The position numbers and the translations under genes were made by a program. Below the pieces are notes generated by a model. That model was not told where the DNA came from. It saw nothing but the letters and a program-made list of their open reading frames with translations, and did no database searches. A stretch of 64,000 nt of DNA from the NCBI GenBank assembly GCA_041743105.1, contig JBGTNI010000010.1, positions 13,589-77,588 on the forward strand, given 5' to 3'. Below are positions 6,070 through 20,176 of the stretch, in pieces (the stretch's first letter is position 1; each line of letters begins with the position of its first letter). The stretch is from Mycobacteriales bacterium (lineage in GTDB: Bacteria > Actinomycetota > Actinomycetes > Mycobacteriales > QHCE01).

Positions 6070-7140
6070 TCACCCTAGGCGGCGGTGGAAGAGGTCCCTA
6101 AGTTCGCGTAACGCCGCGTCGATCTCCTGCTCGAAGTAGCCACCCTGCACCAGCGTGAACTGGCTGGGGTCGAAATCGGCGTCAGTAACTTGAGCGCTGG
6201 CTTGACCGCCCATGGCAGCAGCAATAGCATCCCACAGCCGCTCCACCTGGGAGGGCTCGTATCCGCTGCCGAAGCGGCGGAGTTTAAACGTATCCTGTAG
6301 CTCGGAGAGTCGATCTTTGTCCGCTTGGATGAATGGGGAGACATCCCCACCGTAGGTGGGCACTTCCACGGTCATTTCGGTCTTGCCGTGTCGCGGCGCG
6401 TAAGGGTCGACGCTGGGCCTGGGGGCCGAACGGGCCACACCATTAGATCGCGCCACGCGTGCGGCGACGCTGGACGGCGCCGCCGGTCCTGGAGACACCG
6501 CTGGGACATCGGCCGCAGTGGAGGGCCATCCGGCGGGCGACACTGCCGGTCCAGGCATTGGGCGTGGCGTGGCGTTGCGTGAACGCGGCCGGGGAGCAAC
6601 GGGGCTGGAACTGGGCGCCGGACGTGAACGCGGTGGCTCAGCGGAGTTTGCCCCCATGCCGCGTGTGGTCACTTGGTCGTCAGGATACGTGCCGGTGACA
6701 CTGGAGGGCACAACACGCGGCGCTGCGCCTAAATCAGCAAAGGACAGGTCGTCATCGGAGGCGCTGGATCGGTAGATCCCAGGGGAGAACTCCACCTCTT
6801 CAGGTGTGCGCTCAGCCGCCACACTCGAGCCAACCGTCAACGCAAGGGACTTGCGTTGACCCAAGGCAGGAAAGCCACTGGAGCCTCGCACCGAGCCGGG
6901 ATCGTCCATGAACTCTTCCAGCTGGCGCTCCAGTCGGTCGAGTTCCATGTCGACATGCCACTCGTCGTAGCCGCCCCATCGGGTCTTGAAGATGACGTCG
7001 CGGACTTCGTCGGGGCCCACGGGGTCGGCGATGGCTTCACCAGCGAGTGTGGCCTCCACGCGGTCAAGAAAGTTATCGACCTCGTCAGCTTTATACCCAC
7101 GACGTAGTGCACGCCGCTTGAACCGCTGGCCCCGCTCCAT
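6070..7140 (-). CDS. DivIVA-domain repeat protein
   Basis: Trimmed to ATG at 7140 (MERGQRFKRRALRRGYKADEVDNFLDRV). A second DivIVA-type motif, FKLRRFGSGYEPSQVERLWD, lies near the C-terminus. A Pro/Ala/Ser-rich linker separates them. Confidence 0.65.
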   Translation of the reverse strand: MERGQRFKRRALRRGYKADEVDNFLDRVEATLAGEAIADPVGPDEVRDVIFKTRWGGYDEWHVDMELDRLERQLEEFMDDPGSVRGSSGFPALGQRKSLALTVGSSVAAERTPEEVEFSPGIYRSSASDDDLSFADLGAAPRVVPSSVTGTYPDDQVTTRGMGANSAEPPRSRPAPSSSPVAPRPRSRNATPRPMPGPAVSPAGWPSTAADVPAVSPGPAAPSSVAARVARSNGVARSAPRPSVDPYAPRHGKTEMTVEVPTYGGDVSPFIQADKDRLSELQDTFKLRRFGSGYEPSQVERLWDAIAAAMGGQASAQVTDADFDPSQFTLVQGGYFEQEIDAALRELRDLFHRRLG

Positions 7141-7233
7141 GCCTGACACACCTCTCAATTTACCTCGCAACGTATCGATGCCCGCTGCCCCCGGTACAGC
7201 AAGACATGAACTACATAACACCATGCCTGCGAC

Positions 7234-8178
7234 CTACGCCACGGGCAGGTACCACGTGAGCAACAGGTAAGCGACGGGCGATGCGACCAAAACGGAATCA
7301 AAACGGTCCATAACACCGCCGTGACCCGGTAACAACTTCCCCATATCTTTCACGCCCACGTCGCGCTTTACCAGCGATTCCGCTAAATCGCCCACGATCG
7401 CGGCTGCCGATACAGTCAGACCGAAGATGACACCATGCCACCACACGTCCTCAAGGCTCCAGACCAGCGCTCCCGCGCCGACCAGGGCGCCCAATAGCAG
7501 CGACCCGGCGGTACCCTCCCATGTCTTACCTGGACTGATGGTGGGGCACATACGATGCCGGCCGATCAGCGAGCCGACGAGATATCCACCGACGTCGCTG
7601 GCAACCGTCACCGCGACCATGGCCAGCACCCGCTTCACGCCGTCGGTCGGTGCCAGCAACAGCACCACGAAACCGGCCAGGAATGGCACATATGAGACCG
7701 TCAGCGTCGCGCCGGCAACATCGCGGGCATACCCGACCGGTCCTTCCGGTAGGCGCCAGAGCATCACCGCTACCACCGTGACCACCCAGCCGATCACCAA
7801 CGCCTGGGGGCCAGTGAGCCAGACCAGTGGAACAATCCCCACGCCACCGACCAGTAACGGCGCCACAGGCGGATGCGCGCCGCTGTGCTCGATAGCCCGA
7901 ATAAGTTCCCAGGTAGCCAAAGCGACGGCCACAGCGATCACAATGAGGAACGCCGGTCGGTATACCAACAACGGCGCCAGCATCAGCGCGGCCATGGCGA
8001 CACCTACACCCAGCCCCATTAACAGGTTTCGTGGTGGCGCGAAGGTAGCAGGGGCGGAGGTGCAGGTTGTTCCGGCGCCAGCCCGATGCCGACCAATATG
8101 GTGCCGGGGTGCGCGCACGACATGCTCCGGCAACATCTGGCCCGGGTCCGGCTGCTGCGGTGAAGCAAGTGCAGGCAC
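7234..8178 (-). CDS. cdsA: phosphatidate cytidylyltransferase
   Basis: Polytopic membrane protein with the C-terminal signature SLVKRDVGVKDMGKLLPGHGGVMDRFDS. The start codon is uncertain. Confidence 0.8.
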   Translation of the reverse strand: MPALASPQQPDPGQMLPEHVVRAPRHHIGRHRAGAGTTCTSAPATFAPPRNLLMGLGVGVAMAALMLAPLLVYRPAFLIVIAVAVALATWELIRAIEHSGAHPPVAPLLVGGVGIVPLVWLTGPQALVIGWVVTVVAVMLWRLPEGPVGYARDVAGATLTVSYVPFLAGFVVLLLAPTDGVKRVLAMVAVTVASDVGGYLVGSLIGRHRMCPTISPGKTWEGTAGSLLLGALVGAGALVWSLEDVWWHGVIFGLTVSAAAIVGDLAESLVKRDVGVKDMGKLLPGHGGVMDRFDSVLVASPVAYLLLTWYLPVA

Positions 8179-14410: not shown

Positions 14411-14646
14411 CCTATGCCGGAACACTGGTTCGACCTTCCGCGGCCGCACTCGCCGACGCCTCGAGGGATCGGCTCGTCTGCCTGTCGTGCGAGCGCGGCT
14501 GGGAACATTGCCACGACGCGATGGTGGTCCATACCGACGGTGAAGCAGAATGCACCGCTTCCACCGCGTGCTTACTCACCGTGGAGCTACACATCCTCAG
14601 GGTCGGCTGTGCGGATCTACAGCCGCAGTGCCGCTGCGGCGAGTAG
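14407..14646 (+). CDS. hypothetical Cys-rich small protein (79 aa)
   Basis: GTG start overlaps the ku stop (GTGA). It has 8 Cys, including the stretch CLSCERGWEHCH, and mostly G/C third positions. It exactly fills the gap between ku and the ligD polymerase gene. No homolog is recognised. Confidence 0.4.
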   Translation: MTYAGTLVRPSAAALADASRDRLVCLSCERGWEHCHDAMVVHTDGEAECTASTACLLTVELHILRVGCADLQPQCRCGE

Positions 14647-14648
14647 CC

Positions 14649-15572
14649 CTATCGCCGAAAATCGACAGCCGGCAGCTTTGCGCCAGGTGCTTGCAGTGGC
14701 GCCAGGAGATCCCCGAACTTGTCGACCCGCCTTAACACGTCGCGATAATCAAACCGCAGGTCACTCTCGTGGCGGCAGCTTTCTACCTCCTGCCACGTGA
14801 TCGGTGTGGAGACGAGCGCGCCAGGACGAGCTCGTAGCGAGTACGCGACCACAGTGGTCTTGGCCGGGTTGTTTTGGCTCCAGTCCAGCAACACCTTGCC
14901 GGCGCGGCGCGATCGGGTCATGGTGTCGACGACCGTCTCCGGGTGTGACGCGGTCATCTGACGGGCGAGCCTGCGCGCATAGGCCCTGGTCTGCTCGGCT
15001 CGAGTCGTCGCGACCGGAGAGTACAGCTGTAAGCCCTTGGAGCCGCTGGTTTTGACGTAGCTGTCCAGACCATCGGCGGCCAATCGCTGGCGCAGTAACA
15101 ACGCTACTTCACAGCACGCAACGATGCCGGCTGGCGCACCCGGATCGAGGTCGAAGACGAGCAGATCCGGTGAACGGCGACCCCCTCGTGGCCCCACCTT
15201 CCACTGTGGCACATGCAGTTCCAGGGCGGCGAGATTAGCTGCCCACACCAAACCCGCAACATCGTCTAGTACCGCGTAGCCGGGTGGGTCCTGCTGTGTC
15301 TGAGACGACATCGACACGGCGACTGTGCGCAGCCATTTCGGAGCGTGACGTCGCGCGTCTTTGTCAAAGAATCCAGCAGCGTCGATCCCGTCAGGGCAGC
15401 GGAACATTGTGAGGATCCGATCGACGAGATGCGGCAGCAGCACCGGCGCTATCTGCTGGTAGTAGGCGATCACGTCGCGTTTGCTGAGACCGATATCGGG
15501 ATAGAGCTCCTTATCTAAATTGGACAAACGTAATTGGCGTTCGCCCACTCGCACATCCACGACCTCAGACAT
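14649..15572 (-). CDS. ligD: LigD polymerase/primase-domain protein
   Basis: Motifs LSNLDKELYP and VFDLDPG, typical of the LigD polymerase domain. Its start overlaps the upstream stop by 1 nt (TGATG). Confidence 0.8.
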   Translation of the reverse strand: MSEVVDVRVGERQLRLSNLDKELYPDIGLSKRDVIAYYQQIAPVLLPHLVDRILTMFRCPDGIDAAGFFDKDARRHAPKWLRTVAVSMSSQTQQDPPGYAVLDDVAGLVWAANLAALELHVPQWKVGPRGGRRSPDLLVFDLDPGAPAGIVACCEVALLLRQRLAADGLDSYVKTSGSKGLQLYSPVATTRAEQTRAYARRLARQMTASHPETVVDTMTRSRRAGKVLLDWSQNNPAKTTVVAYSLRARPGALVSTPITWQEVESCRHESDLRFDYRDVLRRVDKFGDLLAPLQAPGAKLPAVDFRR

Positions 15573-17050
15573 CAGCGCTCCTCCACAGTCCGGGTTGCAG
15601 GCACGGTGCCGCGGACCTGTGCCGGGTTCTTATCAGACCGCAGCCCCCGCCACGAGGCGTGACGCAATCGACCATCGGCAGTCCAGGATCGAAATTGCAC
15701 TTCCCCTACGAGCGTCGGGTTCACCCATCGGGCGCCACGTGCCCTACCTGTCGGAACCGGCGTAACGAAGGGTGACGTCTTACGTCCTGCGCGCTCCAAG
15801 AAACGAGTTAAATCGGCTCGGACTGCCTCGCTGAACCCCGTTCCTACATCACCAATGTATGTGAGGCTCAGGTTTTCCAACGACTTTCCCGACTTCAGTC
15901 TTCTCGACCCTGGATCGGGCAGACCCAGCAGCAGCGCACCGAGCTGTCCTTTAAGCCGACCGGCTCCTTCTCGCCAACCGCCGATCACCACCTCTTGAGT
16001 GAGAATGTTGGGAACCTTGATCCAATCCGGGGATCGCTTCCCCGGTCGATATGGCGAGTCGAGTCGCTTTGCGATCACTCCCTCGAGTGCCTGCTCGCGG
16101 CTGGCCTGTTGTACGGCCGCGCCGGAATCGGAGTCGGAGAAGCAGGGCGGCACTGACCAATCCGAACCCGGGGGCACTACCGACTCGAGCAGCTTCCGGC
16201 GTTGCCAGTATGGCGTACGCAGCAGCGAGTGGCCGCCGCGGTGGAGCAGATCGAAAATGAGAAAAGACACCGGGACCTCGACGGCCATCCGAGCTATCTC
16301 GGTCTGGTCGCGCAGGTGCATGCGGCGCTGTAGGACAGCAAAGCTTGGCCGACCGGCAGCATCGAACGCCACCAGCTCACCGTCGAGGAGCACCTGCGTA
16401 CTTCCTATCGCGTCAACCAGGTTTTGTAGCTCGGGATAGCGTCCCGTCGTATCCGCTTCGCCCCGTCCCCACGCCTGAAAGCGGCCATCCTGTATCGAGA
16501 CCAGCGCCCGGACACCGTCCCATTTGAACTCGTAGGCCCACCGCGAGCCGGCTCTGGGATTGTCGGGAAGCTCACCCAGGGTCGCTAACATCGGCGCTAG
16601 GTGGCGTGGCAGTGGCTCACTGTGCTTGTCCCCAGGCGGATCTAGCTGGGGGATCGGACGGCTCAGACAACGTAGTAGCCACTGCGATTCATCGGTGCAT
16701 ATGAGTAGATAGCGGCCCTGTAACCGTCGGCCCTGTAGTGACACCTCCACGTGTCGGTCGTCCCACTTGTGGGTTCGATACGTACCTTCGTCCCAAATGC
16801 TGACATGGCCCGCACCGTATTCCCCTCGAGGAATCTCTCCGGCGAAATTGGCGTACTCCAATGGATGATCTTCGGTTCGAATGGCTAGCCGCTGTGGTCC
16901 TGGTTCGTCGGGCACTCCTTTGGGAACTGCCCACGAGACCAACACCCCGGCTCGTTCGAGCCGAAAATCCCAATGCAGCCGTCGCGCGTGATGTTCTTGA
17001 ACCACAAACTTTTGCTCTCCGGAGTCGGCAACGTGAGCCGAGGGGGTCAC
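15572..17050 (-). CDS. ligD: LigD 3'-phosphoesterase + ATP-dependent ligase domains
   Basis: Phosphoesterase motif FVVQEHHARRLHWDFRLE, then the ligase adenylation motif EFKWDGVR. Confidence 0.85.
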   Translation of the reverse strand: MTPSAHVADSGEQKFVVQEHHARRLHWDFRLERAGVLVSWAVPKGVPDEPGPQRLAIRTEDHPLEYANFAGEIPRGEYGAGHVSIWDEGTYRTHKWDDRHVEVSLQGRRLQGRYLLICTDESQWLLRCLSRPIPQLDPPGDKHSEPLPRHLAPMLATLGELPDNPRAGSRWAYEFKWDGVRALVSIQDGRFQAWGRGEADTTGRYPELQNLVDAIGSTQVLLDGELVAFDAAGRPSFAVLQRRMHLRDQTEIARMAVEVPVSFLIFDLLHRGGHSLLRTPYWQRRKLLESVVPPGSDWSVPPCFSDSDSGAAVQQASREQALEGVIAKRLDSPYRPGKRSPDWIKVPNILTQEVVIGGWREGAGRLKGQLGALLLGLPDPGSRRLKSGKSLENLSLTYIGDVGTGFSEAVRADLTRFLERAGRKTSPFVTPVPTGRARGARWVNPTLVGEVQFRSWTADGRLRHASWRGLRSDKNPAQVRGTVPATRTVEER

Positions 17051-17420
17051 GTGATCGGAGTCTGGGATTGGCTCCGGGTCCTACCGCGATTACGGCGCTG
17101 TAGATACTGGCCGAGATCACCGTGCACGTGTTCCCCCTTTTATGTCGGTTAAAGGGCTCAAATCCGGTCTGGAGTTCTTGTTTCCCGCCTGCGGCCTATC
17201 ACACCTGTCCCCACGATTCTGCACTACTGACGAGAATCGCACACTCGACCGGGCTTGGATACTCCAAGAAACCACTAGCAGTGCCGCTTCGATCGCAATA
17301 TCCTTGTAACAGTGCGCAACACGCCAGAATAGGTAGGTTCTCAATGACACATATCTCAGCAGGTTCGACTAGGTCAGCATTGAGCTTTCGGGGCCCGATA
17401 GGGCTCGGAGCATCGCCACG

Positions 17421-17807
17421 TTGGTTGCGGCGGTGTTTATTTTAATTGGTGTGCTCGGTTTCATTCCCGGCATCACCACCAACCTAGACCAGCTAGAATT
17501 CGCTGGCCATGAATCAGGCGCGGAGCTACTGGGACTTTTCCAAGTCTCAGTACTACATAACATCGTGCACCTACTGTTCGGTGTGGTCGGACTGGCGCTT
17601 GCCCGCTCGGTCTCGGGTGCCGTGAGGTTCCTGATCGGTGGTGGAGTCGTTTACTTGGTCCTATGGGTATACGGATTGCTGGTCGATCACGGCGGCGACG
17701 CTAACTTCGTCCCGTTCAACGATGCCGACAACTGGCTGCACCTTGGCCTGGGGGTTGGCATGATTGCATTGGGACTGTTGGCGCGACCGGCGCGCACCAC
17801 CACCTAA
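17421..17807 (+). CDS. DUF4383-like membrane protein
   Basis: VAAVFILIGVLGFIPGITTN...VLHNIVHLLFGVVGLALA. The only canonical in-frame start is TTG at 17421, so the true start is uncertain. Confidence 0.55.
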   Translation: MVAAVFILIGVLGFIPGITTNLDQLEFAGHESGAELLGLFQVSVLHNIVHLLFGVVGLALARSVSGAVRFLIGGGVVYLVLWVYGLLVDHGGDANFVPFNDADNWLHLGLGVGMIALGLLARPARTTT

Positions 17808-17820
17808 TGAGCAAACAACA

Positions 17821-17846
17821 AGGTGGGCCACAGCTGTGGCCCACCT
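17821..17846 (+). terminator. hairpin after the DUF4383 gene
   Basis: aggtgggccaca-gc-tgtggcccacct, a 12-bp stem. Confidence 0.55.
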
Positions 17847-17962
17847 TCACATTCCTACCTTATCTTCGACAGCTCTACCCGGATGCTAAACAGCAACGAA
17901 TAGCATTTAATCCTGACTCCGGCGACGCACCCACGGTTTTCAGCCGGAGACTATGAACAGAC

Positions 17963-17996
17963 ACGGATGGACACCGCTTAGGCGGTGTCCATCCGT
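17963..17996 (-). terminator. hairpin after the His-rich protein gene
   Basis: acggatggacaccgc / gcggtgtccatccgt, a 15-bp stem lying 14 nt past the stop at 18010. Confidence 0.55.
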
Positions 17997-18009
17997 TGTG
18001 CTATGCACT

Positions 18010-18324
18010 TTACAGGTTCAGACTCAGGTCCAGATCCAGATTTAGACCGTCGTCATTGTAGTTATTCCGGTCGTATGAGCGGTGGTGCCGGTCTTTCCAG
18101 TTGTCGTGCGAGCTGTGGTGCCGGTCGCAGTTTTTGTGCCAGCGATCTTTCCAGTTGTCGTGCGAGCTGTGGTGCCCATCGTTCCAGCTGTTGTGCGAGC
18201 TGCGGTGCCGATCGTTGTCGCCTAGGATGTTGAGGCTGGCCGATGCCGGAGCGGAAACGCCCACAGCGATACCGGTGGCCATCACCGTTGCTACGGCAGC
18301 CATGGCAAGTTTGCGATAACGCAT
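18010..18324 (-). CDS. secreted His/Trp-rich repeat protein
   Basis: Trimmed to ATG at 18324 after aaagg. Signal peptide MRYRKLAMAAVATVMATGIAVGVSAPASA. The mature part holds 11 His in repeats HHSSHDNWKDR. Confidence 0.6.
   Translation of the reverse strand: MRYRKLAMAAVATVMATGIAVGVSAPASASLNILGDNDRHRSSHNSWNDGHHSSHDNWKDRWHKNCDRHHSSHDNWKDRHHRSYDRNNYNDDGLNLDLDLSLNL
18092..18209. repeat. 54-nt period tandem repeat inside the His-rich gene
   Basis: tctttccagttgtcgtgcgagctgtggtgcc occurs at 18092-18122 and 18146-18176, with a degenerate third copy at 18180-18209. Confidence 0.75.
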
Positions 18325-18712
18325 ATCTTTACCTTTCAGTTCGGGTGGCGATCCGGCTTCTTCGTCGCTTCCCGCGAAGCTGGACCTTTCGTGCACGAGA
18401 GTGTCCTCTCGACTCTTACATTCGCGGTATTACCCCGATCGGTTGGCTCCGAACCAAAGTATTTCTGGAAACATTTATTACCCACAGCCACTCGCCTGAA
18501 CAAAACCGATCGTGCCGGCGTATTCCGCGCCGAGGTTGACCGGCTTGCCGCGGCCACCAGGACCGCCTTTATTCTGATCACGGGTGGTCGGCTGCTCATT
18601 CGGCGGAACAGCGGCGAAGTGCTGCTGCCATCTGAGGCCTCCCGTCGCACATCGACTGATCGAATATCTGGCACAACGGCGCGATAGGCCCAAAAGTGTA
18701 GAGAGGTGCGCT

Positions 18713-20176
18713 ATGCCGCGATTGCGCTACGAAACCACCGTAGAAGCGCCCATCGACGAGGTCTTCGCGTGGCACGAACGGTCCGGAGCGGTGCAGCGCC
18801 TGCTACCACCCTGGGAGCCCATCCGCGTGACGTCGACAGAGTCGACGCGGTCGGCAGCTGCCGCTCCGCCCGATGGGAAAATCCCCTCACCGCTGGCTGT
18901 GGGCTCGTGCGTGGAGTTCGAGCTGGCAGTCCCGGGACACTTACTAGAGCTCGGTCTGAAAAAACTTGGTCTCCCCCGATGGGTCGCAGAACATACCTAC
19001 TACGATCCGCCACACGAATTCCGCGACACTACGCGCAAAGGACCATTCCGCAGTTGGAAGCACCGACACCGCTTCGAGGCAACGGCCGGGGGTACCACCG
19101 TCATCGACGAGGTGGACTTCCAACTGCCCCTCGGGCGGCTCGGCGCCCTGGCAGCAGACACCTCCCAGACCCGACTTACCCGCATGTTCGCCTACCGTCA
19201 CCGGCAGCTCGCCGACGACCTCGCAGCGCACGCCCGTGCCGCCGCGCGGGGTGCCGGAAAGCTCCGGGTAGTCATCGCCGGTAGCAGCGGTCTGATCGGA
19301 TCGGCACTCAGTGCTTTCCTGCGTACCGGCGGGCACGACGTGCTCACCCTGGTGCGGCGGCCTGCCCGCACGGCGGAGGAGGTCTACTGGAACCCGGAGT
19401 ATGGCGTACTCGACCCGACCGCGCTGATCGGCGTCGACGCAGTGATCAACCTGGCCGGAGCACCGCTGCTCGGGCGATGGAGCAAGAACCACAAGCTTGC
19501 CGTGCTCACCAGTCGCATCTACAGCACCACCCTGCTGTCGCAGACGTTGGCCGCACTCGCTGCCGAAAATGCCGGCGGACCGACAGTGTTGATCAACGGC
19601 TCGGCAATTGGATACTACGGCCCTGACGCAGGCTCGCGGCTGCTAACCGAGGACAGTGCCGCCGGTGTCGGCTTTCTCGCCGAGGTGGTACAGGAATGGG
19701 AGAAGGCCACCGAGGCCGCCCAGGCTGCGGGACTTCGCGTGGTACACGTACGGACCGGAGTGGTGCAGTCGCCTTCCGGTGGCGCGCTGCGAGCCCAACT
19801 TCCGCTGTTCCTGGCCGGCGCCGGGGGACGCCTCGGTAGCGGTGAGCAATGGCTGAGCTGGATCGGCCTCGACGACATCGTGGGGGTCTTTCACCACGCG
19901 CTGACCACGCCGACACTGCACGGGGCGATTAACGCCGTCGCTCCCGAGCCGGTGACTACCGGTGAATACGCGGCGACACTGGCGCGAGTGCTGGGTAGAC
20001 CTGCACTACTTCCGATTCCGGCGTTCGGGCTCACCTTGGTACTGGGTAGTCAGGCCGCACACGAGATGCTGCTAACCAGCCAACGGGTCGTTCCGCAACG
20101 CGCACTCGAGAGCGATTACATATTTCGCAACACCACACTCGACAGTGCACTACGTCACGTGCTGGGGCGTTCTTAG
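18713..20176 (+). CDS. SRPBCC domain + NAD-dependent epimerase/dehydratase (YfcH/DUF1731-type) fusion
   Basis: Trimmed to ATG at 18713 after gagagg. N-terminal region MPRLRYETTVEAPIDEVFAWHERSGA, then VVIAGSSGLIGSAL (Rossmann). Confidence 0.7.
   Translation: MPRLRYETTVEAPIDEVFAWHERSGAVQRLLPPWEPIRVTSTESTRSAAAAPPDGKIPSPLAVGSCVEFELAVPGHLLELGLKKLGLPRWVAEHTYYDPPHEFRDTTRKGPFRSWKHRHRFEATAGGTTVIDEVDFQLPLGRLGALAADTSQTRLTRMFAYRHRQLADDLAAHARAAARGAGKLRVVIAGSSGLIGSALSAFLRTGGHDVLTLVRRPARTAEEVYWNPEYGVLDPTALIGVDAVINLAGAPLLGRWSKNHKLAVLTSRIYSTTLLSQTLAALAAENAGGPTVLINGSAIGYYGPDAGSRLLTEDSAAGVGFLAEVVQEWEKATEAAQAAGLRVVHVRTGVVQSPSGGALRAQLPLFLAGAGGRLGSGEQWLSWIGLDDIVGVFHHALTTPTLHGAINAVAPEPVTTGEYAATLARVLGRPALLPIPAFGLTLVLGSQAAHEMLLTSQRVVPQRALESDYIFRNTTLDSALRHVLGRS

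Follow-up and report, generated by a model that had tools for sequence, protein, structure and literature searches.

Does a short, low-complexity open reading frame (ORF) near the Ku and LigD genes of an uncultured actinobacterium encode a real exported protein, and if so, what might that protein bind or build? The question is raised by a 64,000-nucleotide (nt) stretch of DNA from a Mycobacteriales bacterium, here called the window, whose minus strand at 18010–18324 reads as a small secreted protein rich in His and Trp. The initial annotation had described a signal peptide, 11 His, 4 Trp and Leu/Asn/Asp-rich termini, all of which the ORF list and the sequence bear out, and had suggested metal binding. 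Comparison with related sequences indicates that this is a real gene and that it belongs to a tiny, undescribed family with, so far, three species-level members, all from related uncultured actinobacteria. The same comparison indicates that the His/Trp repeats of the window protein are a recent, lineage-specific, in-frame tandem amplification of a conserved single motif. The best explanation of function that we can offer, held at a little short of even confidence and argued by analogy, is an exported cation-binding protein with self-associating or surface-binding ends, expressed from a SigK-like promoter.

The gene model comprises a coding sequence with its own translation and termination signals:

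18010–18324, minus strand: coding sequence of a 104-residue precursor, with its ATG at 18324 and a TAA stop at 18010–18012; identified from the ORF list, guanine-plus-cytosine (GC) content by codon position, and the ratio of nonsynonymous to synonymous differences (pN/pS).
18332–18337, minus strand: Shine-Dalgarno sequence GAAAGG, 7 nt before the ATG and conserved in all orthologues.
17963–17996, minus strand: terminator-like hairpin with a perfect 15-bp stem and a 4-nt loop, beginning 14 nt past the stop codon.

GC content at the three codon positions of the small gene is 0.58/0.41/0.73, which is the pattern of its neighbours (0.66/0.45/0.75 in Kgd, for comparison) and is seen in that frame only. 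Two orthologues at syntenic positions, with mostly synonymous differences, settle its status as a gene. Searches covering 5.8 billion and 1.84 billion proteins returned one homologue, and the second came from synteny. The first, P0003, is a 112-residue protein that matches over its full length (E = 6e-12, exhaustive HMMER search of the 1.84 billion representatives). At least six independent metagenomic contigs carry its gene, and in six of them the protein is identical in length and sequence. At these loci an ABC permease gene and an ABC ATPase gene are followed by the divergently oriented small gene, which converges on DUF4383, the LigD ligase, the LigD polymerase and Ku, the same order as in the window. 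The other orthologue, on locus L055 (7780–8082, minus strand, 100 residues), was reached via the closest DUF4383 homologue and is divergent from an SRPBCC-epimerase gene. The shared arrangement is Ku-LigD-DUF4383-small gene-ABC, with the epimerase gene between the last two where it is present. The initial annotation had called for a check of homologues and their neighbourhoods; both homologues lie at the syntenic position.

Four protein features at this Ku-LigD-DUF4383/ABC-Kgd locus, found by three-sequence alignment and synteny, unite the family. All three proteins have a signal peptide, then [SD]L[NG]ILGDN[DN], then one [SR]H[HR]SS(x)N[SD]WN[DH][GN]H motif, and finally DDGL and an (L-[DNS])5-L stretch that closes the protein. 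Within the motif, summarised as HHSSxNxWNxxH, the His, Trp and Asn positions are invariant across the three species. The C-terminal stretch occurs as LNLDLDLSLNL, LDLDLDLDLSL and LNLDLDLDLNL; in a six-frame translation of 744 kb it was found only in these genes, and it ends exactly at the stop codon every time. The middles differ: P0003 and L055 carry acidic Asp/Glu/Gly/Leu sequence (NLLDDLLGDDDGGDDEGLLEELLGDDD... and NLEELLDDLLGDDNGSNGDDGLLGLGDG...) without His repeats. Mature P0003 carries a net charge of −34 and contains 4 His; the corresponding figures for the window protein are −3 and 11. DNA identity among the orthologues is about 53% in the middle and 73–79% in the ends.

The initial annotation recognised no family for this protein, and we likewise reject membership in any described family because every homology test failed. 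For the window protein, Pfam gave no family at E ≤ 0.1 and NCBIfam none at E ≤ 1; for the orthologues, Pfam returned nothing, or DUF4321 only at E = 0.067 across the signal peptide. Against PDB chains (phmmer, E ≤ 10), only C-type lectin-like chains, an aggrecan chain and SAHS1 appeared, at E > 1. Word-indexed searches with the protein and with a two-sequence profile found only the protein itself and P0003, a metagenome scan with the three-sequence alignment found only an already known Joint Genome Institute (JGI) contig, and tblastn against the window and 48 epimerase-derived loci found no paralogues. One apparent match, the 3587-residue metagenomic protein P0002 (E = 1e-19, in 24 stretches), consists of about 30 near-identical FN3-like repeats and was set aside as an artefact of composition and repetition rather than homology. 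The DUF4383 homologues P0008, P0012 and P0038 lie in different neighbourhoods with no small gene and were treated as paralogous contexts.

A rival reading of the locus is that a non-coding tandem repeat lies by chance in an open frame. The setting invites it: numerous overlapping ORFs occur in this GC-rich region, the composition is of low complexity, and database homology is almost nil. The divergence between orthologues, however, is biased towards synonymous change. Uncorrected pN/pS of the conserved blocks against the orthologues is 0.22–0.59 overall and 0.17–0.31 at the C-terminus. Differences in signal-peptide DNA fall 5/3/11 over the three codon positions, that is, mostly on the third, and those between the C-terminus of the window gene and that of the P0003 lineage (L049) fall 1/2/8, with 8 of 11 at the third position and the amino acids unchanged. 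The non-coding reading also has to contend with the frame-specific third-position GC, with conserved protein ends, and with a frame kept in orthologues whose middles are wholly different. Every repeat unit is a multiple of 3 nt, so that changes in copy number preserve the frame. The Shine-Dalgarno sequence and ATG are kept in all three orthologous genes in the three-species alignment, and strong 3′ hairpins of differing sequence (−33 to −37 kcal/mol) stand behind all three. The non-coding reading is thus effectively excluded, with next to no probability left to it. As far as these signals indicate, the small gene is real and separately transcribed, a monocistronic unit equipped with a promoter region, Shine-Dalgarno sequence and terminator hairpin of its own.

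The start codon differs from that of the public model. The NCBI-derived model P0001 has 128 residues and starts at a GTG at 18396; it was rejected as over-extended, the equivalent L049 stretch being broken by stop codons. With the conserved Shine-Dalgarno sequence and ATG at 18337–18322, its N-terminal extension (18396–18324) probably makes the public model 24 codons too long. An exact look-up of the 128-residue model found no record.

The precursor is divided into an export signal and a mature protein with two conserved ends:

18238–18324, minus strand: Sec-type signal peptide of 29 codons, made up of MRYRK, a hydrophobic core of 17–18 residues (LAMAAVATVMATGIAVGV) and SAPASA, with predicted cleavage between ASA and S.
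18211–18237, minus strand: conserved mature N-terminus SLNILGDND, which reads [SD]L[NG]ILGDN[DN] in all three orthologues.
18013–18048, minus strand: conserved C-terminus GLNLDLDLSLNL-COOH, with strict alternation of Leu and polar residues, conserved in the three orthologues.

Direct reading of the sequence finds the charged n-region, hydrophobic core and AxA of a signal peptide, conserved in the three orthologues. Features of a lipoprotein or Tat signal are lacking: there is no lipobox or Cys near the cleavage site, and the n-region R-Y-R-K has no RR pair. The mature protein has 75 residues, not the 73 first assigned to it: 13 Asp, 12 Asn, 11 His, 10 Ser, 8 Leu, 7 Arg and 4 Trp among them. 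It has an isoelectric point of 6.4, a grand average of hydropathy (GRAVY) of −1.9 and a net charge of −3; its sole Cys, residue 66, lies within a repeat unit. AlphaFold2 predicted no fold for either the window type or the acidic type: the mean predicted local distance difference test scores (pLDDT) of the two models are 52 and 54, and both are disordered, with the signal peptide alone helical (a helix at residues 3–23 in the model of the window protein). The mature protein is accordingly predicted to be intrinsically disordered.

The repeats occupy the stretch between the conserved ends:

18175–18210, minus strand: unit 1, RHRSSHNSWNDG, the ancestral single-copy His/Trp motif, which aligns with SHHSSSNSWNDNH of L055 and SHHSSNDWNHGH of P0003.
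18049–18174, minus strand: units 2–5, namely HHSSHDNWKDR, WHKNCDR (truncated), HHSSHDNWKDR and HHRSYDRNNYNDD, in frame and lineage-specific.

That these are an amplification is read from the alignment, because unit 1 aligns with the single motif of the orthologues and units 2–5 are without counterpart there. The amplified repeats replaced the acidic, Leu-rich stretch of the orthologues. Tandem Repeats Finder reports a period of 33 nt (11 codons) and 4.7 copies, and the truncated unit measures 21 nt. Between units 2 and 4, 31 of 33 nt agree, the longest exact repeat being 31 nt at a spacing of 54 nt, and a direct-repeat search found three in-register copies at spacings of 54 and 33 nt. The 54-nt repeat of the initial annotation is therefore real as a spacing, that of a recent, higher-order duplication over the basic unit, while the basic unit itself is 33 nt in about 4.7 copies. 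A frameshift origin of the His-rich middle was considered and rejected: hand translation of the L055 acidic region in the other two frames yields Thr/Ala-rich sequence or stops. In an independent short-read assembly of the same organism (Logan SRR28170472, L058), which is 100% identical to window 14433–18121, the sequence ends inside the His/Trp repeat at unit 3/4, suggesting that the repeat breaks short-read assemblies; the repeat number given here is consequently that of the window assembly alone.

We next turn to the upstream region, which contains the following features:

18325–18459, minus strand: conserved promoter and 5′ leader of about 135 nt, 78% identical to L049 (about the level of coding DNA); BLAST homology ends at 18459.
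18420–18446, minus strand: candidate extracytoplasmic function (ECF)-type promoter CCAACC-N15-GCGAAT, matching the SigK consensus CCATCC-N15-CCGAAT at 10/12 positions.
18396–18411, minus strand: predicted hairpin 1, CGAGAG-GACA-CTCTCG, with an invariant GAGAG/CTCTC stem and variable loops in the three species and no compensatory changes.
18351–18385, minus strand: predicted hairpin 2, GTCCAGCTTC...GAAGCCGGAT, a perfect 9-bp stem in L049; in L055 it has one compensatory pair (C-G to U-A) plus mismatches.
18530–18715, no strand assigned: window-specific intergenic DNA of about 190 nt (limits approximate), adjoining the epimerase start and without an L055 counterpart.

The intergenic region had been given as 388 bp. 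Homologues of the epimerase align from residue 2–3, and L055 has an identical MPxLRYE start, which places the epimerase ATG at 18716 and makes the intergenic length 391 nt. The region is unusually long mostly because of the lineage-specific 190 nt or so, not because of a large conserved leader: the L055 intergenic region is about 202 nt, and the P0003 lineage is without the whole segment 18460–20148, which includes the distal intergenic DNA and the epimerase gene. The segment 18530–18715 has no Rfam match, and it was rejected as a repeat or mobile element because neither the window nor the retrieved loci contain another copy.

The three-species alignment of the conserved part shows two blocks, GAGCCA(A/T)CC and (G/A)CGAA(T/C)GTAAG, separated by a variable spacer of 15–16 nt. 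At the aligned position L055 has CCATCC-N15-ACGAAC and L049 has CCAACC-N16-GCGAAT, each matching the SigK consensus (that of M. tuberculosis; PMC4821874, Suppl. Table 2) at 10/12. A sigma-70 promoter scan found no consensus promoter. Transcription probably starts from the conserved, SigK-like ECF-type promoter, about 100 nt upstream; were this candidate the one in use, hairpin 1 would lie at the 5′ end of the transcript. A conserved upstream ORF was sought in the same DNA and rejected: the ATGTAA in the −10-like block reads AACGTAA in L055, and the extension from GTG-18396 is closed by stops in L049.

The initial annotation had also allowed for a leader RNA, and the data do not favour one. The folding energy of the leader is unremarkable (z = −1.28 against shuffles), and a cmscan of 17000–19500 against Rfam 15 (E ≤ 10) gave no match in it. 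The predicted hairpins are 92–95% paired across species, and a single compensatory, covarying pair was found in all, a result equalled by 126 of 500 shuffles. Two chance-level cmscan matches fall outside the leader, SgrS at 17481–17578 (E = 0.74) and sR32 at 18223–18283, within the coding sequence (E = 6.1).

How might such a protein work? The reading that we hold to be the best explanation would begin with Sec export of a small disordered protein. Its C-terminal alternation of Leu and polar residues would make an amphipathic beta-strand, possibly together with a strand from the N-terminal LNIL, with six Leu on one face and Asp, Asn and Ser on the other. By means of this strand the proteins would associate with one another or attach to a hydrophobic surface of the envelope. 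Screening of charge by cations, or pH, might gate the association as for designed (LD)n peptides, a possibility favoured because LDLD peptides synthesised at the same length form beta-sheets and stay self-repulsive until their charge is compensated. The exposed, hydrated middle would bind cations: ions of Ca/Mg type where it is acidic, as in the orthologues, and in the window protein transition metals (Ni/Cu/Zn), at some five His clusters. The conserved H-H...W...H motif offers a plausible single transition-metal site, which would have been multiplied about five-fold in the window lineage. Judged from composition, metal binding by the mature protein is plausible.

Several observations weigh against this explanation. 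The His repeats are absent from two of the three orthologues, whose middles are acidic, which means that the ancestral protein cannot have had multi-site transition-metal binding as its role. This weakens the metal-binding proposal of the initial annotation: by sequence, transition-metal binding would be at most a conserved single site multiplied in the window lineage. Within about 10 kb there is no gene for a metal transporter, chaperone or regulator. The metal-responsive operator once suggested for the intergenic region fares no better: the best matches to IdeR, Zur, Nur, Fur, RicR/CsoR and ArsR-type boxes are equalled in shuffled sequence, in what is a weak test. The closest, a RicR-type pattern with 2 mismatches, was equalled in 52 of 300 shuffles and is not conserved in L049. 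AlphaFold shows no beta-strands at the termini, in a prediction made for the monomer from a two-sequence alignment. As for the promoter, SigK-type matches with at most 2 mismatches occur in the window at the chance rate (6 found, 5.3 expected), so only position, orientation and conservation give the candidate its weight. A SigF-like alternative, GGTT-N15/16-GGGTAA, can be read on the same conserved blocks, degraded to GGGTGC in L049, and a crude region-2 motif search of the 64-kb window found no ECF sigma gene and no sigK-rskA.

The divergence of the middles raises the rival possibility that function lies wholly in the conserved ends, which would be surface-active or matrix-forming, with the middle a near-neutral, fast-evolving spacer and its repeats the product of slippage, without a metal role. 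That the middle has no similarity among orthologues, with net charges ranging from −3 to −34 and the low DNA identity noted above, is what such a spacer would leave, as are repeats so recent that units 2 and 4 still match at 31/33 nt. The lack of metal-related genes or operators nearby fits as well, and the alternating Leu/acid C-terminus resembles designed self-assembling peptides. On the other hand, the amplified unit is one conserved in three species with invariant His, Trp and Asn, which argues for a role of the motif, and a 75-residue protein with 11 His will, as a matter of chemistry, bind metals irrespective of selection. We regard the spacer as rather unlikely.

The same promoter blocks and C-terminus could instead be read as those of an envelope-stress effector or ligand of an ECF (SigK-like) pathway, its C-terminus being read by a C-terminus-binding protease or anti-sigma factor, as the C-termini of outer membrane proteins activate DegS. 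The promoter-like blocks are conserved at 10/12 in three species, the C-terminal residues are the most constrained and always terminal, and the inducing signal of SigK is unknown; conservation of SigK sites is reported to extend across Actinobacteria (PMC7509140). The DegS parallel is analogy only, however, the promoter match is by itself at chance level, and no sigK-rskA was seen in the 64-kb window. A ligand of this kind is highly improbable.

The setting is unremarkable core chromosome. Before the small gene come pyrH, tsf, rpsB, a Xer-type recombinase, Ku, LigD and DUF4383; after it come a yfcH-type SRPBCC-epimerase, an ABC-2 exporter, actinobacterial Kgd/OdhA, an alcohol dehydrogenase, a Uma2-family protein, malic enzyme and a diacylglycerol-kinase-family protein. 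No neighbour is both invariant and co-oriented with the small gene, so the linkage looks like inherited synteny and not an operon. One neighbour nevertheless suggests a further rival, a Sec-exported signalling or antimicrobial peptide with the divergent ABC-2 exporter as its immunity or export partner, in that the ABC ATPase and ABC2_membrane_4 permease are the constant upstream-side neighbour in all three lineages. Yet the whole block from rpsB-tsf-pyrH to Kgd is conserved synteny, so that adjacency to the exporter carries little information; the epimerase gene intervenes in two lineages, and the genes are divergent and not co-transcribed. The extreme anionic character of the orthologues, and the lack of processing, modification or regulator genes, also speak against such a peptide, which we consider very unlikely.

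The three lineages differ in gene content on either side of the small gene. The SRPBCC-epimerase gene is present in the window and in L055; in L049–L054 the gene and its flanks are cleanly absent (window 18460–20148 against L049 1941–1967), and the small gene there faces the ABC ATPase gene. In L055, FMN (flavin mononucleotide)-reductase-like and 214-residue P-loop protein genes separate DUF4383 from the small gene. These extra genes, at 6300–7715, encode an FMN-reductase/flavodoxin-like protein and a P-loop NTPase (nucleoside triphosphatase)-like ORF with weak Pfam matches only. In the window a 12-bp GC-rich hairpin at 17820–17847 follows directly after the DUF4383 stop codon; this hairpin and the one at 17963–17996 would be separate terminators, 115 nt apart, for two convergent genes. 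The literature on DUF4383 yielded a single incidental mention.

A second long intergenic region, at 17051–17420 (370 nt), lies between LigD and DUF4383, and Rfam found nothing there. Its DUF4383-proximal part, 17198–17420, sits in a BLAST alignment with L049 (window 17198–17802, 78.7% identity overall); global alignment of 17198–17420 alone gives 49%, because the L049 counterpart is shorter. LigD itself varies in layout. In the window (14649–17050) it comprises a phosphoesterase-plus-ligase protein of 492 residues and a separate primase-polymerase of 307 residues, with base 15572 common to both; in L049 (3095–5157) it is a 384-residue ligase without the phosphoesterase domain plus a separate polymerase, and in L055 (3088–5544) a single fused protein of 818 residues.

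In the absence of a family, likeness to small secreted low-complexity cation-binding or self-assembling proteins can be drawn by analogy only. SmbP is a His-rich protein with short internal repeats and a folded, helical structure. It is a small Sec-exported protein that binds Ni(II), Cu(II), Zn(II) and Fe(III) (PMC7137794). The window protein resembles it in size and Sec export, and its 11 His in HHxxH clusters can be set beside the metal binding of SmbP. The two have no detectable sequence relationship (phmmer against PDB), the window protein is predicted to be disordered whereas SmbP is folded and helical, SmbP is without an alternating Leu/Asp C-terminus, and SmbP is proteobacterial whereas the window protein is actinobacterial. 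A second analogue is the prion octarepeat region, a disordered array of His- and Trp-containing tandem repeats where PrP mainly binds Cu(II) and Zn(II) (PMC10249355). Like the window repeats, the (PHGGGWGQ)n octarepeats are disordered, carry His and Trp in each unit and change in number in frame, but they are eukaryotic and unrelated in sequence, with 8-residue units bearing one His in place of 11-residue units bearing three, so that the analogy is one of mechanism only.

The conserved C-terminus finds a parallel in peptide design. Alternating peptides of LDLD type self-assemble as beta-sheets and are self-repulsive until their charge is compensated (PMC9008438, PMC6097002). LDLD12 and (LDLK)3, which form beta-sheet nanofibres, share with it a strict Leu/Asp alternation over 10–12 residues; they are synthetic, isolated peptides, whereas here the alternation closes a natural 75-residue protein, with Asn or Ser partly in place of Asp. 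Chaplins, which are amyloid proteins, are among the small, Sec-exported, surface-active proteins of actinobacteria that assemble at surfaces through beta-strands. Size, Sec export, actinobacterial origin and the proposed strand-driven surface assembly are points in common, but the window protein and its orthologues have no chaplin-domain Pfam match, and the window protein is hydrophilic (GRAVY as given above) where chaplins are hydrophobic. For the promoter, the blocks CCA(A/T)CC-N15/16-(G/A)CGAA(T/C) resemble the CCATCC-N15-CCGAAT of the SigK regulon (mpt70/mpt83), among whose known targets are exported proteins (PMC7509140), although at 10/12 only and at chance frequency in the window, and the window protein is unrelated to MPT70/83.

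Carried further, these analogies would make the family a hitherto overlooked class of exported bacterial "strap" proteins, natural equivalents of the designed LDLD peptides, in which a (Leu-Asp)n tag serves cation-triggered beta-sheet assembly or envelope attachment, and a swappable middle sets ion specificity. In the window lineage that middle would have turned, through amplification of the motif, from a Ca/Mg-type polyanion into a metal buffer like the prion octarepeats, under SigK-like ECF expression. So specific a proposal we think quite unlikely to hold in full.

Should the mechanism fail, what is left is an orphan secreted protein of restricted lineage, and the analysis would have yielded chiefly a corrected gene model and the falsification of the riboswitch and operator idea. 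If the proposed mechanism is true, the protein would show that the alternating Leu/Asp self-assembly motif familiar to peptide engineers also occurs in nature, and would be possibly a new target of a SigK-type ECF sigma factor; as a 75-residue exported peptide with His clusters, it could also serve as a secretion-compatible metal-affinity tag. For the family itself, it would mean that ion-binding character was rewritten in one lineage, from polyanionic to His/Trp-rich, through the in-frame amplification of an 11-codon motif.

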